Shown here in pieces: positions 17,231 through 55,874 of a stretch of 64,000 bases of DNA. Both the position numbers and the translations under genes were made by a program. Where the stretch lies: positions 58,592-122,591 of IMG/VR virus record IMGVR_UViG_3300025131_011243; one strand, written 5' to 3'. The notes beneath the pieces were generated by a model. That model was not told the origin of the DNA, searched no databases, and worked only from the letters and a program-made list of their open reading frames with translations. This stretch comes from a virus. Position 1 is the stretch's first letter, and every line of letters starts with the position of its first letter.

Positions 17231-17661
17231 TTGAATTGCCCCCACCAAAGATCTTCAGTTTTTTGAGCGATCTTTGCCTTTTTGACGGTCTTGATCTTGG
17301 TGTTAGCCAACGCCTGTTGGAAGTTGACTTCAACCTGGATCTTGTCTAAAGAAGAAGAGTCGTCACCTAAGATCATAACTTTGATGACATCAGTTCCCTT
17401 CTTGGTTATTTCAATACGATCACCAATAGCCCGAACAAGATCCGCTTTCTCCAATGACTCAACATCGGATGCGGAGACTGTTACAGGACGACGATACGAC
17501 TTTTCGCTAATGCGATTGTTTTCATCTCTCCATATGGAAAATAGCTTGCGAGCAGTTGACTGGGGTACGGTTTCTTTCTGATGTATTTGAAACATGACGC
17601 CAGGCATTTGCGGCAAAAGATAATCGATCAATGATTGTGCATGTTTTTTCATAGGACGCAT
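17227..17661 (-). CDS. hypothetical protein (possible winged helix)
   Basis: 144-aa ORF; IEITKKG wing-like motif. Confidence 0.65.
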   Translation of the reverse strand: MRPMKKHAQSLIDYLLPQMPGVMFQIHQKETVPQSTARKLFSIWRDENNRISEKSYRRPVTVSASDVESLEKADLVRAIGDRIEITKKGTDVIKVMILGDDSSSLDKIQVEVNFQQALANTKIKTVKKAKIAQKTEDLWWGQFK

Positions 17662-17663
17662 AG

Positions 17664-17769
17664 TTAATTCCCCGTAAGCAATTTTCTTTCTGCGTATGGA
17701 GATTCGTTTCCTCTGTCATACCAACTAAACGACTCGTTCCTTAACTCTCTCCAATAATGGCATTCGCCA
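17664..17769 (-). repeat. diverged copy of the 3' end of gene 18572..19351
   Basis: ~105-bp direct repeat of 18572..18677; encodes GECHYWRELRNESFSWYDRGNESPYAERKLLTGN versus GEGHYWRELRNEPFSWYDRASESPYAERKLLTGN. Confidence 0.9.
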
Positions 17770-18471
17770 TTAACCGTCATCGAACTCCATATCATTGTCT
17801 TTACTTCTATCTTCGTGCAACCAATTCCTGTCCATTTCCCATCCGTCAATATGCTTTTCTAAATAATGCAGATGTTTATGGCAATTACCACACAGCACAA
17901 CACACTTATTGATTTCTCTTAGAATAGCCGTCCAACCATAACCTTGATTTACAGAATTTGCTATCCCGAACTTCTTCTGAGATGGATCAATATGATGAAA
18001 TTCCAAGCAGAACCATCTTATTTCTCCACACTTTTGACAACAGGCAGACTTCTTATATTCGATGATTTGCATCCTCTTTTGCTTCTTCCTGAACCTGTCC
18101 TTCTCGTTAACTTTACTGCGATTATTCTTTCTGTATCTTTTGCTTGTTTCTGCTTCACGCTTTTTGTTGCGTTTTTTGTGGTTCCTGCTATAGTACCTTT
18201 TGTTGGTCAGCCTACTGCGACGGCGTTTTTCCTTTTCCACGCATTCTTCTTGGCTACAACATTGTGCTTTATATAGTTTGCTAAAAGCATGCTTGGCACC
18301 GCAATGTCTACAAGTACATCTTTGATCGTATCTATCTTGCTGCTTCTTGTGTTGGTCGGCTTTTCTCCATAACTTAAAACAGTCATCACTACAGTAAATC
18401 CTGTGCTTATGACTACTTATAAACTCTTTCTTACAATACTTACACTCCCTGTGTCCATCCTTAACAGACAT
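17770..18471 (-). CDS. free-standing HNH homing endonuclease
   Basis: CQKCG..LEFHHIDP..KCVVLCGNCH; N-terminal Cys-rich zinc fingers; GGAGG RBS. Confidence 0.88.
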   Translation of the reverse strand: MSVKDGHRECKYCKKEFISSHKHRIYCSDDCFKLWRKADQHKKQQDRYDQRCTCRHCGAKHAFSKLYKAQCCSQEECVEKEKRRRSRLTNKRYYSRNHKKRNKKREAETSKRYRKNNRSKVNEKDRFRKKQKRMQIIEYKKSACCQKCGEIRWFCLEFHHIDPSQKKFGIANSVNQGYGWTAILREINKCVVLCGNCHKHLHYLEKHIDGWEMDRNWLHEDRSKDNDMEFDDG

Positions 18472-43834: not shown

Positions 43835-44482
43835 CTACTTGTAACTCCGAACCGCAAAGTCCTTTAGAGTTACGGACCAACTCTTCCAACGAGGGTTGTC
43901 CGAAAGAACGTAGTCCAAAACTTCCTCAGCCACAACCGTAACGACTAGCATTACGATATTTCGGGCCAAAGGATAGTCACAGACATCTCCATCTTCCGAA
44001 TTTGCCGGAACTTGGTAAACGCTGTCCCAAACGACTTCTCCATAGTCCTCGAACAAACCGGAATGCAAGCAATCGATCTTGTTCTTAGAACAATAGTCGT
44101 GGAGAACCTGCCGGGCCTCGCTGTTGTCGAACGCATCGATAACAAGCTTAGCACCCTTGAGTAACTTCTTGACGTTTTTTTCTTCAAGCTTCTTGTTTAC
44201 AACGTCGATTTCCACGCCAACATCCCTCCAGATACGATTTTGCAAAGCCGTAACCTTCAAAGCTCCAACGTCGTTGTCGCCATAGACTTGAGTGTTGACG
44301 TTATGTTCGTCAACTCGGTCCATGTCGATGACGCAGATATCGCTTACGCCCTGACGGATCAGGGTCTCTACCAAGTTGCTACCCAAAGCACCCGCACCGC
44401 AAACAACGATACGAACGCCCTTGAGACGATCAATCAGACCTTCTCCACGGTAGGCGATTTCATGTGTGAATTTCTTGGCCAT
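43835..44482 (-). CDS. ThiF/E1-like ubiquitin-activating enzyme
   Basis: GAGALGS, DMDRVDEHNVNTQ, LKV, DAFDN..AR, candidate catalytic Cys in DVCDYP. Confidence 0.9.
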   Translation of the reverse strand: MAKKFTHEIAYRGEGLIDRLKGVRIVVCGAGALGSNLVETLIRQGVSDICVIDMDRVDEHNVNTQVYGDNDVGALKVTALQNRIWRDVGVEIDVVNKKLEEKNVKKLLKGAKLVIDAFDNSEARQVLHDYCSKNKIDCLHSGLFEDYGEVVWDSVYQVPANSEDGDVCDYPLARNIVMLVVTVVAEEVLDYVLSDNPRWKSWSVTLKDFAVRSYK

Positions 44483-44901
44483 TTTTTCGCTTTCTTCATA
44501 ATGGGTCTAACAACTGTCGGCATAACCCCCACAATTCTTTTCTTGATCATTCGAATATGTCCCTCAACGAAAGGTTGTTCGTCGTCAAAGAACCAGAAGC
44601 ATCTTAGCCCATCTGCTCCCTTAATGCAACATACAAACGGTCTTCCTTCGGCAACTATCCAAGCATTCATAGTTAAGATGTCGGTTGTGCTGGGACTTGC
44701 AATCATTGAAGGATGGGTATGAATCCAACCAATCACTCGATCAGGATCTCTCCTGACAAGTTCATGGTTGAATCCAACCCTAGCTGGGATGCCCAATTCA
44801 TAAGAGATAGCGCTCGTAACCCAAACGGGTCCGTACAGATCTCCTACCAAGATGTAGGACTCTTCGTCGCCAGTATTCATATTGAACATCAATCGCTCCA
44901 A
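44434..44901 (-). CDS. JAB/MPN+ metalloprotease
   Basis: N-terminal Glu plus WIHTHP....PS..D JAMM motif. Confidence 0.85.
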   Translation of the reverse strand: MERLMFNMNTGDEESYILVGDLYGPVWVTSAISYELGIPARVGFNHELVRRDPDRVIGWIHTHPSMIASPSTTDILTMNAWIVAEGRPFVCCIKGADGLRCFWFFDDEQPFVEGHIRMIKKRIVGVMPTVVRPIMKKAKKWPRNSHMKSPTVEKV

Positions 44902-45824
44902 TCTCCAGTGTAATCGTCGGTTCCTCTATCGTCTACGTCAAGATAGTTCCCGCCAACTCGGTAAATCTGGTTGCCCGTAATACCCTCTCGGATAACGCCA
45001 ACCAAACTCTGCAAGTCGAAGTTCCTATCTCCACCAGACAAACAGATGCCCGCCGATTGAACAGCAAGCGTTTTCTTATCAACAGTCGAACGATGAGTTT
45101 CACCATCGACAACATACTCGACAGTATACGACTCGCCTCGCTCAACGAAACTCCTGAATCCGCCACCAGCACGATTGATTGCCGACTTTACTCGACCTTC
45201 TGCCGTAAGAGCTTCCGCCTCGACAGCAAGCCTCTTGGCTTCCTTTTCGGCCTCAACAACATCGACCAAAGCAAGGTCGTAAGCACGTCTCTGTTCCTTT
45301 GACATACTTGAAAAATCAACGTCCTTCGGGGCAACGTTTTCTGACAAGGCATTTCTCAATACAGTTGCATGCTTGATGCTATGAGCGTCGTCGATCCTTT
45401 CGAACCAACAGTTGATGCCATCGAATCTAACACGCACTGCATCGAACAACTGCAATTCTTCCGGCAAAAGAATAGGAACAAATCCTTGAATCTTGAACCG
45501 GGAATCACCTTCGTTTGCAGGGATACCCCAGAAACGGTTGTCCTGTCGCCTGGTTGCGATCAACCTTAGAACAGGGAACAGGTTGAAGTACGTTCGCCTC
45601 TCGATCATCGTAGGCTCACGTACAAACTCTGCGAGCTTGTAGGAAGCGGGACGGAATACGCCCCAACCCTCAAAACCTCTCGGCTTTGAAACCCGCAATG
45701 ACATAACGATGTCAGCAATCTTAACCCTGATCGCCTTATTGCGCAGAACAGGGCTGAAGAATTCCGACTTGAGGAAAACATCTTCTTCCGCTGCCAACTT
45801 TTTCAAAAGCTCATTGACCTTCAT
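44889..45824 (-). CDS. uncharacterised protein of the Ubl/TROVE operon
   Basis: 311-aa ORF; C-terminal SAGICLSGGD..FDLQSLVGVIRE. Confidence 0.8.
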   Translation of the reverse strand: MKVNELLKKLAAEEDVFLKSEFFSPVLRNKAIRVKIADIVMSLRVSKPRGFEGWGVFRPASYKLAEFVREPTMIERRTYFNLFPVLRLIATRRQDNRFWGIPANEGDSRFKIQGFVPILLPEELQLFDAVRVRFDGINCWFERIDDAHSIKHATVLRNALSENVAPKDVDFSSMSKEQRRAYDLALVDVVEAEKEAKRLAVEAEALTAEGRVKSAINRAGGGFRSFVERGESYTVEYVVDGETHRSTVDKKTLAVQSAGICLSGGDRNFDLQSLVGVIREGITGNQIYRVGGNYLDVDDRGTDDYTGDWSD

Positions 45825-45839
45825 GGCCTTACTCCAATT

Positions 45840-45870
45840 AAAACAGGGTAGCAGAAGCTACCCTGTTTTT
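45840..45870. terminator. intrinsic terminator after the TROVE gene
   Basis: AAAACAGGGTAGC-agaa-GCTACCCTGTTTT perfect hairpin with A/T tails. Confidence 0.75.
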
Positions 45871-45896
45871 CAAGTCAAAATGTAGCTCCTTCCGGA

Positions 45897-47441
45897 TTAC
45901 GCAACTTTCCTTTGAGGGAGAGTATACGACATAATTTCCATCAACAGATCGATCTTCGACGGCTTCGTCAAAAGCGGGATCAACCCCGGCAACGAGTAAT
46001 AGTCGCCGTTGAAGATATACGCATCGTAGTCGATGTCGTTATTGCGACATCGCTGTTCCAGCGTATCCCGATGCGTCCCGCACTTAACGAACAGAACGTT
46101 CGGACGAGTGTCCATATCCTTCATGTAGTTCAATATGCTGGACAAGAACGACGGAGATCGGTTCTCACCTTCGTCCGTAATCATGATGATGTTCTCGACG
46201 TACTGCTTGTTACGTCGAAGCATCTCAATTCCGACGCCGCAGGAAGTACATCCGGTAGCAAAGATGCCATTCAGAGCCTTTTCCCACGATGCCAAATCCG
46301 TTCCGCTCGAAACAATCGGATACGCCATTTCGTCACAAGCATAGACGAACAAATCAGCGTCCATGATTGCCGAAGTCATAGCAGCAATCTGCTTACCAAC
46401 TTCAATGGCGATGTTCATCGAACCGGACTTATCGATGATGATTGCCGTAGGACGCTTGATACGTCCCTTCGACTTCAACTGAGCATCACCGATGTCCTCA
46501 AGCTGCTTGGCAACGTCTTCGTCAATATCAGTAGTCTTCTTGACCTGGGACGCTTTCATAGCCGCAACACGCTTGCCCGTCTTTGCCTTGTCAAGACGTT
46601 CCTGAATGAACGCCTTGAGGTCCGGGTTGTCGAATGCACCACGACGCTTCAACGAACCGATGTTGTTGATCAACTCTTGGTCACTCATGACCTGAACCAA
46701 AGCCAAAAGAACGGTCGGACTCATTGCCGAGATTACCGTCGATGCGATTCGGTACGGAACCTTGTTGGCGATGATGATCTCAGCCTGCTTTGCAGCCGAC
46801 TCAGTCTTACGCAGTTCCTTAACCGCCTTCAACTTGCTGTCATCAGGCGGATCTTCATCGAAGAGAATCTTTTGCGCTCGATCCGAAGGCTCAATGTGGA
46901 GAAGAGAGTAAACCCTCTTCAACGACTTTCGAGCCTGCAAAACGCAAGCGTCGAACCAAACCGGATCGTCTTCACGATCAGTCAGGTATCGCTTAACTTC
47001 CGTTGCAACAGATCGAGGAATATTCTTGCCCAGACCAGAATCCGTCAAAGCCGTTCGATGAGTCGTCTTCTGGTTGCGGCCAGTTCCAGTCGTAACCGGA
47101 GTACTGACCTTTTTCTTGCGACCGTGAATGAAGTCGATAACTCTCTCCACCTGATAAGGCGGCAGTTCACGGAGCATGGCCAGTCCAACGTCTCGGTGTC
47201 CTTCGAAGTTGCTCAGACACAGGTTGACGATGAACAGTTCCTTATGGTCACGGATCTCGCCATTGTCAGCATACCATGCGCCCAAACGAACGTAGAACAA
47301 CGGATCTTGAGCAATCATCTGTTCATGAACAGGATGACTTGCGCTCAGATTTCTGTGGGGAGTCATCAACAGCGTATTCAGCATCCCCAAACGAAGATCC
47401 TGTTCACTGGACGTATCAACTTGTGCAGTTCGTACAGCCAT
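45897..47441 (-). CDS. Ro60/TROVE-like helical domain plus vWA protein
   Basis: N-terminal DPLFYVRL..W....EIRD, ELINNIGSLKRRG, C-terminal MIDAS IDKSGSM, TSCG, ITDEGEN; adjacent Y-like RNAs. Confidence 0.75.
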   Translation of the reverse strand: MAVRTAQVDTSSEQDLRLGMLNTLLMTPHRNLSASHPVHEQMIAQDPLFYVRLGAWYADNGEIRDHKELFIVNLCLSNFEGHRDVGLAMLRELPPYQVERVIDFIHGRKKKVSTPVTTGTGRNQKTTHRTALTDSGLGKNIPRSVATEVKRYLTDREDDPVWFDACVLQARKSLKRVYSLLHIEPSDRAQKILFDEDPPDDSKLKAVKELRKTESAAKQAEIIIANKVPYRIASTVISAMSPTVLLALVQVMSDQELINNIGSLKRRGAFDNPDLKAFIQERLDKAKTGKRVAAMKASQVKKTTDIDEDVAKQLEDIGDAQLKSKGRIKRPTAIIIDKSGSMNIAIEVGKQIAAMTSAIMDADLFVYACDEMAYPIVSSGTDLASWEKALNGIFATGCTSCGVGIEMLRRNKQYVENIIMITDEGENRSPSFLSSILNYMKDMDTRPNVLFVKCGTHRDTLEQRCRNNDIDYDAYIFNGDYYSLPGLIPLLTKPSKIDLLMEIMSYTLPQRKVA

Positions 47442-47491
47442 GGTCTTTCTCCTTAGAAAGAGTTTTACAAATTATCGATTCGGATTCGGAA

Positions 47492-47701
47492 TTAACCGAA
47501 TACAGCCTGCGGACGAAGAGTCATGTCACCGGTTTCTGCGTTGCGGTCAACAACGAAACCATTCATCTTGGTGAGAGGAGCACTGAAGTGATTAGCTACA
47601 GCCTGCTTGACGTCTTGGTCGGTAGAGAGATCGCCCACATCGATATCCTCGAAGAGAAGATCGAACGATTCTCCATTGTATCTGACGTGAAGTACTGACA
47701 T
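47492..47701 (-). CDS. ubiquitin-like (beta-grasp) small protein
   Basis: 69 aa, beta-beta-alpha-beta-beta pattern, ends in Gly (QAVFG), co-operonic with E1 and JAB. Confidence 0.75.
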   Translation of the reverse strand: MSVLHVRYNGESFDLLFEDIDVGDLSTDQDVKQAVANHFSAPLTKMNGFVVDRNAETGDMTLRPQAVFG

Positions 47702-47746
47702 TTTTCATCTCCTTTCGTCTGCAAGCCTCAAGAGAGGCATAAAAAA

Positions 47747-47878
47747 AGCCTTGTCTAAGTTTCAGGACGGTTTCTTGGGTAACGTGCAAGATTTGAACTT
47801 GCGACCTTCACTTCCTAATAGTGACGCTCAACCTACTGAGCTAACGTTTGTAACGTCCAAATTGTTGGAGACAAGGCT
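47747..47878 (-). ncRNA. Y-RNA-like RNA with nested tRNA-like domain
   Basis: terminal stem AGCCUUGUCU/AGACAAGGCU plus U-tract; inner D, anticodon (loop AUUAGGA) and T arms; shared motif. Confidence 0.75.
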
Positions 47879-47881
47879 AAG

Positions 47882-48016
47882 TGGGAGAGGTAGGAGTCGA
47901 ACCTACGAGTCTTGCGTTTTCAGGGCAATGCTTTACCAAAAGTTTGTAAGCTACATCCCATTGGAGACGGACAAGCCGTCTAAGTCAGAATAGCTATAGC
48001 ACTAAGCTACTCTCCC
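47882..48016 (-). ncRNA. tRNA-like (GAA anticodon) RNA with ~60-nt motif insert in the D-loop
   Basis: acceptor GGGAGAG/CUCUCCC, T-arm GUAGG-UUCGACU-CCUAC; insert ACUUAGAC..GUCUCCAA..UACAAAC. Confidence 0.75.
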
Positions 48017-48041
48017 ATAATTATTCAGTTTTCAAAAAGCG

Positions 48042-48112
48042 AACGTCCAAGTTCAGGCAGCGGTCAAAGCATTCCGAAGATTGGTTTGTATGCTGTCCTT
48101 GTTGGGGACGTC
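48042..48112 (-). ncRNA. stand-alone minimal Y-like motif RNA
   Basis: ACGUCCCCAA..CAGCAUACAAAC..GCUGCCUGAACUUGGACGU. Confidence 0.65.
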
Positions 48113-48126
48113 AACTTAATTTCAAG

Positions 48127-48268
48127 TGGGGGAGACAGGACTCGAACCTGTAGTCTTTCGCTTATGAGGCAAACGCTTTTCCATTTGTTTGTAAGCTACG
48201 ACCTATTGGAGACGAACAAGCCGTCTAAGTTGGAATAGCTGTTTAACGTAGTTTTTAGCTACTCCCCC
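48127..48268 (-). ncRNA. tRNA-like (CAU anticodon) RNA with motif insert in the D-loop
   Basis: acceptor GGGGGAG/CUCCCCC, T-arm ACAGG-UUCGAGU-CCUGU; insert nearly identical to that in 47882..48016. Confidence 0.75.
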
Positions 48269-48273
48269 ATGGA

Positions 48274-48318
48274 GGTCCCGGTCGCCAAGTTTCCGAAGAA
48301 GCTTGACGAGTCAGGACC
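48274..48318 (-). other. stable hairpin within the RNA array
   Basis: GGUCCUG..UCGUCAAG..CUUGGCGA..GGGACC. Confidence 0.45.
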
Positions 48319-48349
48319 ATATAGTTTTCAAAGAACTCTTTGAAAAGTC

Positions 48350-48516
48350 AAGAAGAAACAGGCGTCCAAGTTCGAGCAGCGGTATGACATTAGTCACAGA
48401 TCTTAAATCTGTTGCCTTATCCACTTGGCTATACGTTCATGTTGGTGAACATAGTGGGATTCGAACCCACGTTGTTGTTTGTACGCTACGCCAGTAGGGG
48501 ACGCCGGTTTCTTCTT
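48350..48516 (-). ncRNA. Y-like RNA containing a circularly permuted tRNA-Leu(UAA)-like domain
   Basis: order T-arm, acceptor 3' strand + ACCA, loop, acceptor 5' strand, D-arm, anticodon arm, all within the motif stem. Confidence 0.75.
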
Positions 48517-48592
48517 CACTTGTCAAAGTCGAGCCTTACGACTCTGCCCTATCTTATCAGCTTCCCAGCCACTTTCAAGGGCAATATTCAAC

Positions 48593-48945: not shown

Positions 48946-48964
48946 TCGTTTCTCCTAAGTTAAG

Positions 48965-49046
48965 TGCGGAAGGAGGGACTTGAACCCTCAAGCCTTACGG
49001 CACTGGATTTTAAATCCAGCGTGTTTGCCAATTTCACCACTCCCGC
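48965..49046 (-). tRNA. tRNA-Leu(TAA)
   Basis: CTGGA-TTTAAAA-TCCAG, variable arm, A73. Confidence 0.93.
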
Positions 49047-49692: not shown

Positions 49693-49778
49693 TACGGATA
49701 AGAGGAGTCGAACCTCCATGGGATTTTACTCCCGCTAGATTCTGAGTCTAGTGCGTCTGCCTATTCCGCCACATCCGC
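49693..49778 (-). tRNA. tRNA-Leu(CAG)
   Basis: CTAGA-CTCAGAA-TCTAG. Confidence 0.93.
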
Positions 49779-50270
49779 TCTTAAGTCATTTTTGTTCTTG
49801 TTCCTTCCTCCATATGTAGGAGTTTGACTATGACAATTTGGACATAGTAATCTAAGATTCCTTATGCGATTGTCTGTCCTGTCTCCGTTCTCGTGGTCCA
49901 AATGCATTGAAAGAGGTTCTCCATTCCACTCTGTTCCCATTCCGCATTTAGAACATTTTTCTTCCAGTTTGCCACATTCGATTAACCTTTTCTTAAGGTG
50001 GCAATTGTTGTATACGACTCCCTTTTTTAGGAGATCCCTTAACTCTCTCTTACTAGGTGGGCTCCATGTTTTATCAAGCTTTCTTCTAGATGCCTGCCCT
50101 AAAAAATGACTCGTATCTATCTTGAAGTTTTCAATCTTGCCCTTCAAGTGAGAATGATTCCCCCCTGAAGGAGCAAGCCCTATCTTCTCCAAAACCTGGC
50201 TAATGGAGAAAGAAGTAGCTACTGCCTCCTCCAGATCTTGGATAGAATACCTTTTCGACGTATGCTTCAT
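49761..50270 (-). CDS. HNH homing endonuclease in the tRNA cluster
   Basis: CSKCG..LDHENGDRTDNRIRNLRLLCPNCHSQT; stop codon lies inside tRNA-Leu(CAG). Confidence 0.92.
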   Translation of the reverse strand: MKHTSKRYSIQDLEEAVATSFSISQVLEKIGLAPSGGNHSHLKGKIENFKIDTSHFLGQASRRKLDKTWSPPSKRELRDLLKKGVVYNNCHLKKRLIECGKLEEKCSKCGMGTEWNGEPLSMHLDHENGDRTDNRIRNLRLLCPNCHSQTPTYGGRNKNKNDLRADVAE

Positions 50271-50555: not shown

Positions 50556-50639
50556 TGCACCGGGTTGGATTCGAACCAACGTAGACTTTCGCCAACAGTT
50601 TGACAGACTGCTGCAACTCTCCAACTTTGCCGCACGCTC
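50556..50639 (-). pseudogene. degenerate long-arm tRNA with GTC anticodon
   Basis: D, anticodon and T arms fold but the acceptor stem has three mismatches. Confidence 0.55.
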
Positions 50640-55666: not shown

Positions 55667-55672
55667 GATAAA

Positions 55673-55874
55673 GACGTTTGGCTCCGTAAGCAGGATTCTG
55701 TTCTATGTCGTCATTTCTCTATTGGCCCTCTACCCGCCATCATAGTCATGCTCACCAACTCCGGCTGCTTGAGGTTGCTATCTCTGTGGTCCAAGCGGCG
55801 TTAGCCTCCCACATTAGAGCACTATAGTCCTGACTTTCCTCTGCGAATTGCAGCGACGACTCGAACCAAACGTC
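55673..55874 (-). ncRNA. rnpB: minimal RNase P RNA (~202 nt)
   Basis: CR-I GAGGAAAGUCAGGA and CR-V ACAGAAUCCUGCUUA form P4 with compensatory changes; P1, P2, P3, P5, P15 and L15 GGU fold. Confidence 0.88.

Follow-up and report, generated by a model that had tools for sequence, protein, structure and literature searches.

The window analysed here is a stretch of 64,000 nucleotides, the last 64 kb of the 122.6-kb virus record IMGVR_UViG_3300025131_011243, and since these 122.6 kb are estimated to be only 26% of the complete genome, the record is probably part of a giant phage. On the minus strand of the window lie a tRNA-like RNA of permuted order, hereafter element A, its sister RNAs (elements B to E) and an operon with a gene for a Ro60-like protein (Table 1). 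The sequence of this region is also found in contigs of four runs marked as probable DNA, with no base substitutions listed and with two single-base insertions relative to the window, near 47740 and 47770 and thus outside element A; none of the RNA runs searched for the region's sequence is listed as carrying it. In a blastn search against GenBank phages, an ordinary tRNA-Leu was the sole match.

Table 1. Positions in the window of the RNA elements, their parts and two genes of the operon
Feature	Position	Strand	Basis
Element A, whole candidate Y RNA (terminal stem and permuted cloverleaf)	48350..48516	-	fold; model R2, 117.9 bits
Terminal stem, 5' strand AAGAAGAAAC-c-GGCGUCC	48499..48516	-	fold, reading
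Module, 5' side: internal loop CCUAC, then stem 2 strand UGG[C]GUAGCG, C unpaired	48484..48498	-	fold
Heptamer UACAAAC, followed by a short linker	48477..48483	-	motif, alignment
T arm GUGGG-UUCGAAU-CCCAC	48454..48470	-	alignment, reading
Closed 7-bp acceptor stem UAUGUUC / A73 / CCA / ACAU / GAACGUA	48432..48453	-	alignment, reading
Acceptor 3' strand UAUGUUC	48453..48447	-	reading
A73	48446	-	reading
CCA	48445..48443	-	reading
Spacer ACAU	48442..48439	-	reading
Acceptor 5' strand GAACGUA	48438..48432	-	reading
UA (U8 A9)	48431..48430	-	reading
D arm GCC-AAGUGGAUAA-GGC, 3-bp stem; A14, G15, G18G19	48429..48414	-	reading, alignment
Anticodon arm ACAGA-UUUAAGA-UCUGU; U33, G37	48412..48396	-	alignment, reading
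Anticodon UAA	48405..48403	-	reading
Small hairpin GAC-UAAU-GUC, variable-arm position	48395..48386	-	fold
Module, 3' side, and terminal stem: CGCUGCUCG / AACUU / GGACGCC / u / GUUUCUUCUU	48350..48381	-	fold
Element B, tRNA-like RNA	48127..48268	-	58.5 bits (R1)
Element D, minimal Y module with small hairpin as sole cargo	48040..48115	-	32.5 bits (R2)
Element C, second tRNA-like RNA, internal Y-module hairpin 47998..47942	47882..48016	-	56.7 bits (R1)
Element E, tRNA-like RNA of normal order; Y module formed by its leader and trailer	47748..47878	-	31.5 bits (R2)
69-aa ORF ending ...AVFG	47492..47701	-	homologues in 60/95 related loci
Ro60-like protein, 514 aa, HEAT ring and vWA domain with DKSGS	45897..47441	-	fold, profile

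Layout and conservation of the permuted RNA

The first-pass annotation had described a circularly permuted tRNA-Leu(UAA)-like domain with a Y-like stem, and this description is borne out by our analysis: all the segments that it had listed are located on the minus strand between 48516 and 48350, and the MFE fold has the same layout. In this fold a long terminal stem is formed by the pairing of 48516..48499 with 48367..48350, that is of AAGAAGAAAC-c-GGCGUCC with GGACGCC-u-GUUUCUUCUU, where GGCGUCC is stem 1 of the Y module, and the stem reaches about 48525/48340; an internal loop CCUAC / AACUU separates it from a second stem, in which UGG[C]GUAGCG pairs with CGCUGCUCG. The RNAfold MFE is -72.9 kcal/mol versus -41.4 +/- 4.3 for shuffled sequences (z = -7.4), and none of the 200 shuffles folds as well. 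In the tRNA-like part, C 48471, just before the T arm, can make a Levitt pair with G15. The internal CCA follows directly after A73 as claimed, and element A is indeed the sole tRNA-like element with an encoded CCA in the window, being shared neither by any of the 11 tRNAs called by ARAGORN nor by any of the three other tRNA-like RNAs of the cluster.

This fold is conserved in related loci. Ten permuted RNAs, namely the window's own and nine from related loci found by a motif-and-pairing script, were aligned by MAFFT, and RNAalifold detected de novo in this alignment the same six helices as in element A, with double (compensatory) changes in 28 of the 34 pairs. The paired cells amount to 94.1%; sliding the 3' partners by 1-3 columns lowers this to 33-46%. 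For covariation the score is 0.69 as against at most 0.15, and none of 500 shuffles reaches any of the observed pairing or covariation measures. It should be kept in mind here that this alignment is also the source of the structure and that its ten sequences are related to each other. Among these homologues, helices 1 and 2 of the terminal stem have double changes in 11 of 14 pairs, and all five pairs covary in the anticodon stem, a 5-bp stem with a 7-nt loop that comes after the D arm. The Levitt pair 15:48 is G:C in element A, A:U in seven other homologues and A:A in two. The heptamer UACAAAC is invariant in all ten permuted homologues as well as in all 14 seed modules of the module model described below.

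Moreover, a covariance model of the whole permuted RNA (model R2) gave 278 matches to terminal-module RNAs at E <= 0.1. The best 150 of these were classed by script, and after 81 had been dropped as non-permuted or duplicate, 69 distinct permuted relatives were left, each with a T arm, a closed acceptor stem and a D arm. Among these 69, drawn from the best 150 of the 278 matches, 60 have all seven acceptor pairs, most have the canonical YrlA order V, T, acceptor, D without anticodon arm, and 17, element A included, have four or five pairs in the anticodon-arm columns. In a pattern scan of viral contigs for TACAAAC..GGTTCGA, 11 of the 121 matches listed passed a loose D-arm filter, five of which were real; these represent four distinct RNAs, all already known.

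Such an RNA might be the product of a true circularly permuted tRNA-Leu(UAA) gene, with the module removed or the tRNA in two pieces, that decodes UUA/UUG. In fact U33, G37, A73, CCA, the 7+5 bp stack, U8, A14, G18G19 and G15:C48 are all present in element A. However, a canonical tRNA-Leu(UAA) gene (48964..49046, 62 bits) lies just 450 nt upstream, the anticodon triplets differ across all seven homologues with a canonical loop, three of the ten homologues have non-canonical anticodon loops, and CCA is mostly absent from the family. Since the anticodons vary and CCA occurs in only seven of the 69 permuted relatives (from the best 150 of 278 R2 matches), decoding and leucylation are not conserved traits of the family. 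Permuted tRNA genes are known from Cyanidioschyzon merolae, in which the 3' half lies upstream of the 5' half and the intervening sequence is removed by RNase P and 3' processing. Element A is alike in that its 3' half is encoded before its 5' half, with a short spacer at the acceptor end, but it differs in many respects: its termini have no bulge-helix-bulge, with a 5/5-nt internal loop between a 7-bp and a 9-bp helix rather than a 3-4-3 arrangement; there is no sign of a splicing endonuclease, and no RtcB was found in the 122-kb record, incomplete as it is; it is linked to Ro60; and its family has variable anticodons and acceptor stems that are often sealed. A genuine tRNA-Leu gene is therefore very unlikely.

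The layout also bears on the origin of the RNA. According to a model cited by Wang et al., YrlA arose from a dimeric tRNA transcript (10.1101/312249), and the order found here, namely the 3' part of copy 1, CCA, a spacer and the 5' part of copy 2, is exactly what this model predicts. Element A thus looks like a little-diverged derivative of a dimeric tRNA. That it should be merely an inert leftover of a tandem tRNA duplication is hardly credible, however, given the strong compensatory changes in each of the six helices among distant phages, the conserved linkage to the operon and the occurrence of the same sequence in contigs of four runs, one of which is near-identical throughout and may be the source of this DNA.

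The Ro60-like protein and the Y module

The Ro60-like ORF, which the first-pass annotation had missed, starts 0.9 kb downstream of element A on the same strand. Its 514-aa product has no Pfam match up to E = 1, and the Pfam TROVE model has no match in the own record. A profile built from 23 homologues retrieves from PDB TROVE domain-containing chains only (E = 0.014), and for the AF2 model of the protein (pLDDT 83.7) the 11 best listed Foldseek matches are all Ro60/Rsr/TROVE structures, phage Ro60 included, which match over the full length with E from 4e-11 to 2e-8 and TM of 0.56-0.67. The MIDAS motif DKSGS (residues 337-341) of the C-terminal vWA domain is invariant or nearly so among the homologues. 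Judged by this predicted structure, the 514-aa protein folds as Ro60. It belongs to a large clade: of 8000 candidates scored, 1920 proteins reach E <= 0.001, their contigs being up to 590 kb long, and at least 510 metagenome stretches are confirmed; a literature search of partial coverage gave no account of this Ro60 clade, of phage permuted tRNAs or of phage-encoded RNase P RNA.

The Y RNAs are followed by the operon (43835..47701, minus strand) with the order 69-aa ORF, Ro60-like gene, 311-aa protein, JAB peptidase and ThiF/E1-like. The 69-aa protein is possibly ubiquitin-like. Among 95 related loci, many of which end prematurely, the 311-aa gene is present in 60, ThiF in 31 and JAB in 23. 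PADLOC models for JAB and E1 match the neighbours, with E1-E2 models on the ThiF/E1-like enzyme at E = 6e-18, and PADLOC gives no match on the Ro60-like, 311-aa and 69-aa proteins. For the 311-aa protein, the Foldseek matches are weak throughout (OB/S1-like and Mpa inter-domain, E >= 1.6e-3), so that it has no firm assignment. We know of no described link between Ro60/Y RNA and a ubiquitin-like conjugation or sulfur-carrier set.

The flanking motifs of the Y module occur five times within 47745..48516, and across the five RNAs of the cluster the module is joined to tRNA-like cargo in three ways. It consists of stem 1 (CGUCC/GGACG), an internal loop and stem 2 with an unpaired C, followed by UACAAAC, and its invariant unpaired letters are an A on the 5' side, ACU on the 3' side and UACAAAC. 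In element B, with CUCAUAA as anticodon loop and GGGGGAG/CUCCCCC as acceptor, 48243..48187 form the module as an internal hairpin. A covariance model from 14 contiguous module hairpins (model R1) gave 100 matches at E <= 0.01 in 96 sources, and in the alignment, which was fitted to the model, 89.1% of the cells are paired versus 39-49% for slid partners, with double changes in 13 of the 14 module pairs.

Several features of the sister RNAs were noted besides. In elements B and C (47882..48268) the 7-bp acceptor stems are perfect, the anticodon loops read CUCAUAA and CUGAAAA, respectively, and a Y-module hairpin of about 55 nt separates the acceptor 5' strand from the D region; two folds compete in them, since the AGCU of the module has partners inside the module and can also form the D stem. 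Element E, with a 'Leu tag' call by ARAGORN at 47777..47850 and a U run after it, is a normal-order tRNA-like RNA with the module as leader and trailer, and another of this kind is found in a related locus (L006:3439-3569); in these RNAs UACAAAC is the 5' acceptor strand, and processing would free the tRNA-like part from the module.

The module probably serves for docking on the Ro60-like protein, as argued in the next section. It might alternatively be a handle for something else, for instance the operon's OB-fold protein or some nuclease, or else a signal for precursor processing and stabilisation of phage tRNA-like RNAs, with only an indirect linkage to Ro60. As in a processing cassette, the module is a leader/trailer pair or an internal hairpin of tRNA-like RNAs; by regex count NCCA is present in 7 of 13 normal-order tRNA-like RNAs flanked by the module, whose 5' acceptor strand UACAAAC provides; and the 311-aa neighbour with its OB/S1-like matches is found in most of the related loci (60 of 95). 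Moreover, the Ro-binding motif of bacteria, GNCGAA, is absent from the 5' strand of element A as read over 48525..48477, where GGCGUCC-CCUAC stands instead. On the other hand, the 5' strand GUCC with its loop is closer to the vertebrate Ro60 site, GGUCCGA as quoted in PMC4201824, than to the bacterial motif, 98 of the 100 R1 matches are co-oriented with the Ro60-like gene (by which the loci had been fetched), and a terminal stem with a tRNA-like domain is the known plan of Y RNAs. The alternative of another factor is accordingly judged unlikely.

Comparison with YrlA and predicted opening by RNase P

The best non-tRNA match of element A in Rfam is YrlA (RF02553), with 19.8 bits against a threshold of 69; positions 30-81 of the YrlA alignment cover T arm, closed acceptor, UA and D arm. 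Sub-threshold YrlA matches are also found upstream of the homologous Ro60-like gene in two related loci (L006 and L007). YrlA RNAs are encoded near Ro60 (within about 4 kb) and co-directional with it, mimic tRNA with a closed acceptor stem and bear the motif GNCGAAN0-1G near the 5' end (PMC4201824); they have no anticodon loop, and their Ro-binding stem extends the anticodon stem (10.1101/312249). Element A is similar in that it lies 0.9 kb upstream of a co-directional Ro60-like gene, together with further Y RNAs, that its ends pair into a long stem, and that T arm, closed acceptor, UA and D arm follow in this order, with tRNA tertiary nucleotides and a covarying Levitt pair (G:C or A:U in 8/10). 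It differs from YrlA in its score below the family threshold, in a full anticodon arm and a variable hairpin, in a Y stem that exits the variable-arm position rather than the anticodon stem, in the module CGUCC..A../ACUUGGACG plus UACAAAC in place of GNCGAA, and in its putative partner, which belongs to a Ro60 clade missed by Pfam TROVE. Phage Ro60 RNPs are described from mycobacteriophages, CcrColossus, Bacillus phage G and Thermus phage phiLo (Yrl1/Yrl2; PMC12135203), and as here a phage Ro60 homologue has Y-like RNAs just upstream; the Yrls of phiLo are defined by a CGAA motif in a bulge, however, whereas here there are five RNAs, in which module and cargo are connected in three ways, and the operon includes JAB and E1-like genes.

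An analogy to two-piece tmRNA had been proposed in the first-pass annotation. The permuted order could in fact yield two base-paired pieces with a CCA end, but ARAGORN calls no tmRNA in the window, the Rfam tmRNA match covers the T loop only (12.6-16.2 bits), and element A has no tag frame, an A:U instead of a G:U as 3:70 pair, and an anticodon arm. This analogy has thus to be given up, and YrlA is the right comparison, because for Mycobacterium smegmatis YrlA the processing has been published (PMC4201824).

As read from its sequence, element A has a 7+5-bp acceptor/T stack, U-1, G+1:C72 and A73-CCA. These are all of the determinants of bacterial RNase P substrates that are known to us, namely a 12-bp acceptor/T stack, U-1, G+1:C72 and RCCA 3' of the stem. 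According to PMC4201824, RNase P cleaves M. smegmatis YrlA, the one whose stem has 7 bp, both in vivo and in vitro, the 5' half then ends in CCA, and both halves remain on Rsr; element A shares the 7-bp stem, and differs in that the CCA is encoded, not added. With its 7-bp acceptor stem, U-1/G+1 and A73-CCA, element A is therefore of the 'openable' kind, and by analogy to that RNA (PMC4201824) the predicted RNase P site is between 48439 (U-1) and 48438 (G+1). The two pieces after the predicted cut have a cofold energy of -73.7 kcal/mol, with -37.7 for their association, and the M. smegmatis precedent makes an opening into two stem-held pieces plausible. In such a process the host RNase P or the miniature RNase P RNA of the phage (see below) would cut before G+1, 3' exonucleases would trim ACAU to CCA, and the halves would stay paired; that element A undergoes both opening and trimming in the way of M. 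smegmatis YrlA can be proposed tentatively.

The family as a whole is not uniform in this respect. By the covariance model, 7 of the 69 permuted relatives from the best 150 of 278 R2 matches have N-CCA immediately behind the 3' strand of the acceptor, the loops being ACCAACAU, GCCAAAAU, GCCAAUU, ACCACGC and three times GCCAUG (two with identical stem). A regex count gives CCA in 5 of 59 permuted RNAs and in 5 of 58 free tRNA-like genes of the same loci. This frequency exceeds the chance rate of 1 in 64, yet CCA is a minority trait in the permuted class, and since its rate is about the same as in free tRNAs, the encoded CCA is possibly a relic and not a functional end. In several close homologues, moreover, the acceptor is sealed by stable tetraloops such as GCAA and UUCG, which argues against obligatory opening. 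As to the chargeability of element A, the one feature in its favour is A73-CCA.

From the YrlA precedent, the RNase P determinants and the cofold of the halves, we therefore read element A as a Y RNA for the phage Ro60, and it is likely a YrlA-type Y RNA of a giant phage with a module that docks on the downstream Ro60-like protein. Here the module would be the docking site for the protein encoded just downstream, and the tRNA-shaped part would be the effector end, which would either recruit a tRNA-binding factor to Ro60 or protect the RNA. Since the Y stem exits the variable-arm position, acceptor, elbow and anticodon arm would all be exposed. We infer the binding to Ro60 as well as such a function, and element A itself belongs to a known class with published processing; what is new is the full cloverleaf with anticodon arm and encoded CCA, a different, putative docking module in three topologies, and a Ro60 clade that is invisible to Pfam.

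The conservation of Y RNAs and Ro60 extends from bacteria to humans. For the question of what role the tRNA-like half plays in bacterial Y RNAs, the phage clade offers a very large Ro60 family that domain searches miss, together with arrays of Y RNAs in which one portable module joins tRNA-like cargo in three ways. Copies such as element A, which are nearly perfect tRNAs with encoded CCA and resemble an intermediate of the dimeric-tRNA origin model, can serve as a clean substrate for asking whether RNase P opening, CCA ends and charging matter. Furthermore, a partner visible only by fold comparison may exist for those 'orphan' YrlA-like RNAs that have been reported without a Ro60 gene.

A miniature RNase P RNA and the neighbouring tRNA genes

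At 55671..55872 on the minus strand, 7 kb from element A, a match to the Rfam model RNaseP_bact_a is found with 72.1 bits (threshold 100, E = 7e-22). Here about 202 nt cover model positions 1-367, with P1-P4 and L15 GGGUA preserved and most of the specificity domain missing. The 340-kb record of the related locus L006 has a homologue of this miniature RNase P RNA with 67 bits (L218:1501-1726, minus strand), and a pattern made from the conserved parts matches 35 viral contigs, as pattern matches.

Two of the 11 virus records checked for the Ro60 clade contain RNase P-like RNA, the own record and that of L006, with no match in the other 9 of the 10 related records checked, and among the seven of these records in which the permuted element was seen, the NCCA loop occurs only in the same two. 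Of five further records with the miniature RNase P pattern, three gave just weak R2 matches of 29-43 bits; 15 of these 19 matches cover approximately the T-acceptor-D part alone and may come from adjacent tRNAs, and 4 span the whole model. Since these further records gave weak R2 matches at best, the co-occurrence of the miniature RNase P RNA with Y RNAs is not general. The miniature RNA retains the CCA-binding L15 GGU. A bolder reading would be that element A forms a two-piece, CCA-ended mimic of a whole tRNA tethered to Ro60, and that the phage opens its CCA-encoding Y RNAs by its own RNase P RNA without specificity domain. The shared occurrence of RNase P-like RNA and NCCA loop in the two records is a hint in favour of this reading, which we regard as rather doubtful. 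If it is true, a two-piece mimic bolted to Ro60 would expose its elbow and anticodon loop together with a free acceptor end, and could be a decoy or sensor for host enzymes that target tRNA, or could even be aminoacylated.

The tRNA array of the window contains an HNH endonuclease ORF (HNH_3, E = 7e-6) at 49761..50270 (minus strand), just upstream of tRNA-Leu(CAG) (49693..49778) and slightly overlapping it. Directly downstream of Cys and Leu tRNAs, another tRNA-like element lies at 50564..50631 (minus strand), a sub-threshold match to Rfam tRNA (28.1 bits, model positions 9-63) with anticodon loop CUGUCAA and a long variable arm, and without a clear acceptor stem. Outside the window, the same record encodes at 17353-17787 (minus strand) a 562-aa ORF with a PolyA_pol domain (CCA-adding enzyme/poly(A) polymerase, 80.6 bits), which is consistent with a phage whose tRNA genes have no encoded CCA.
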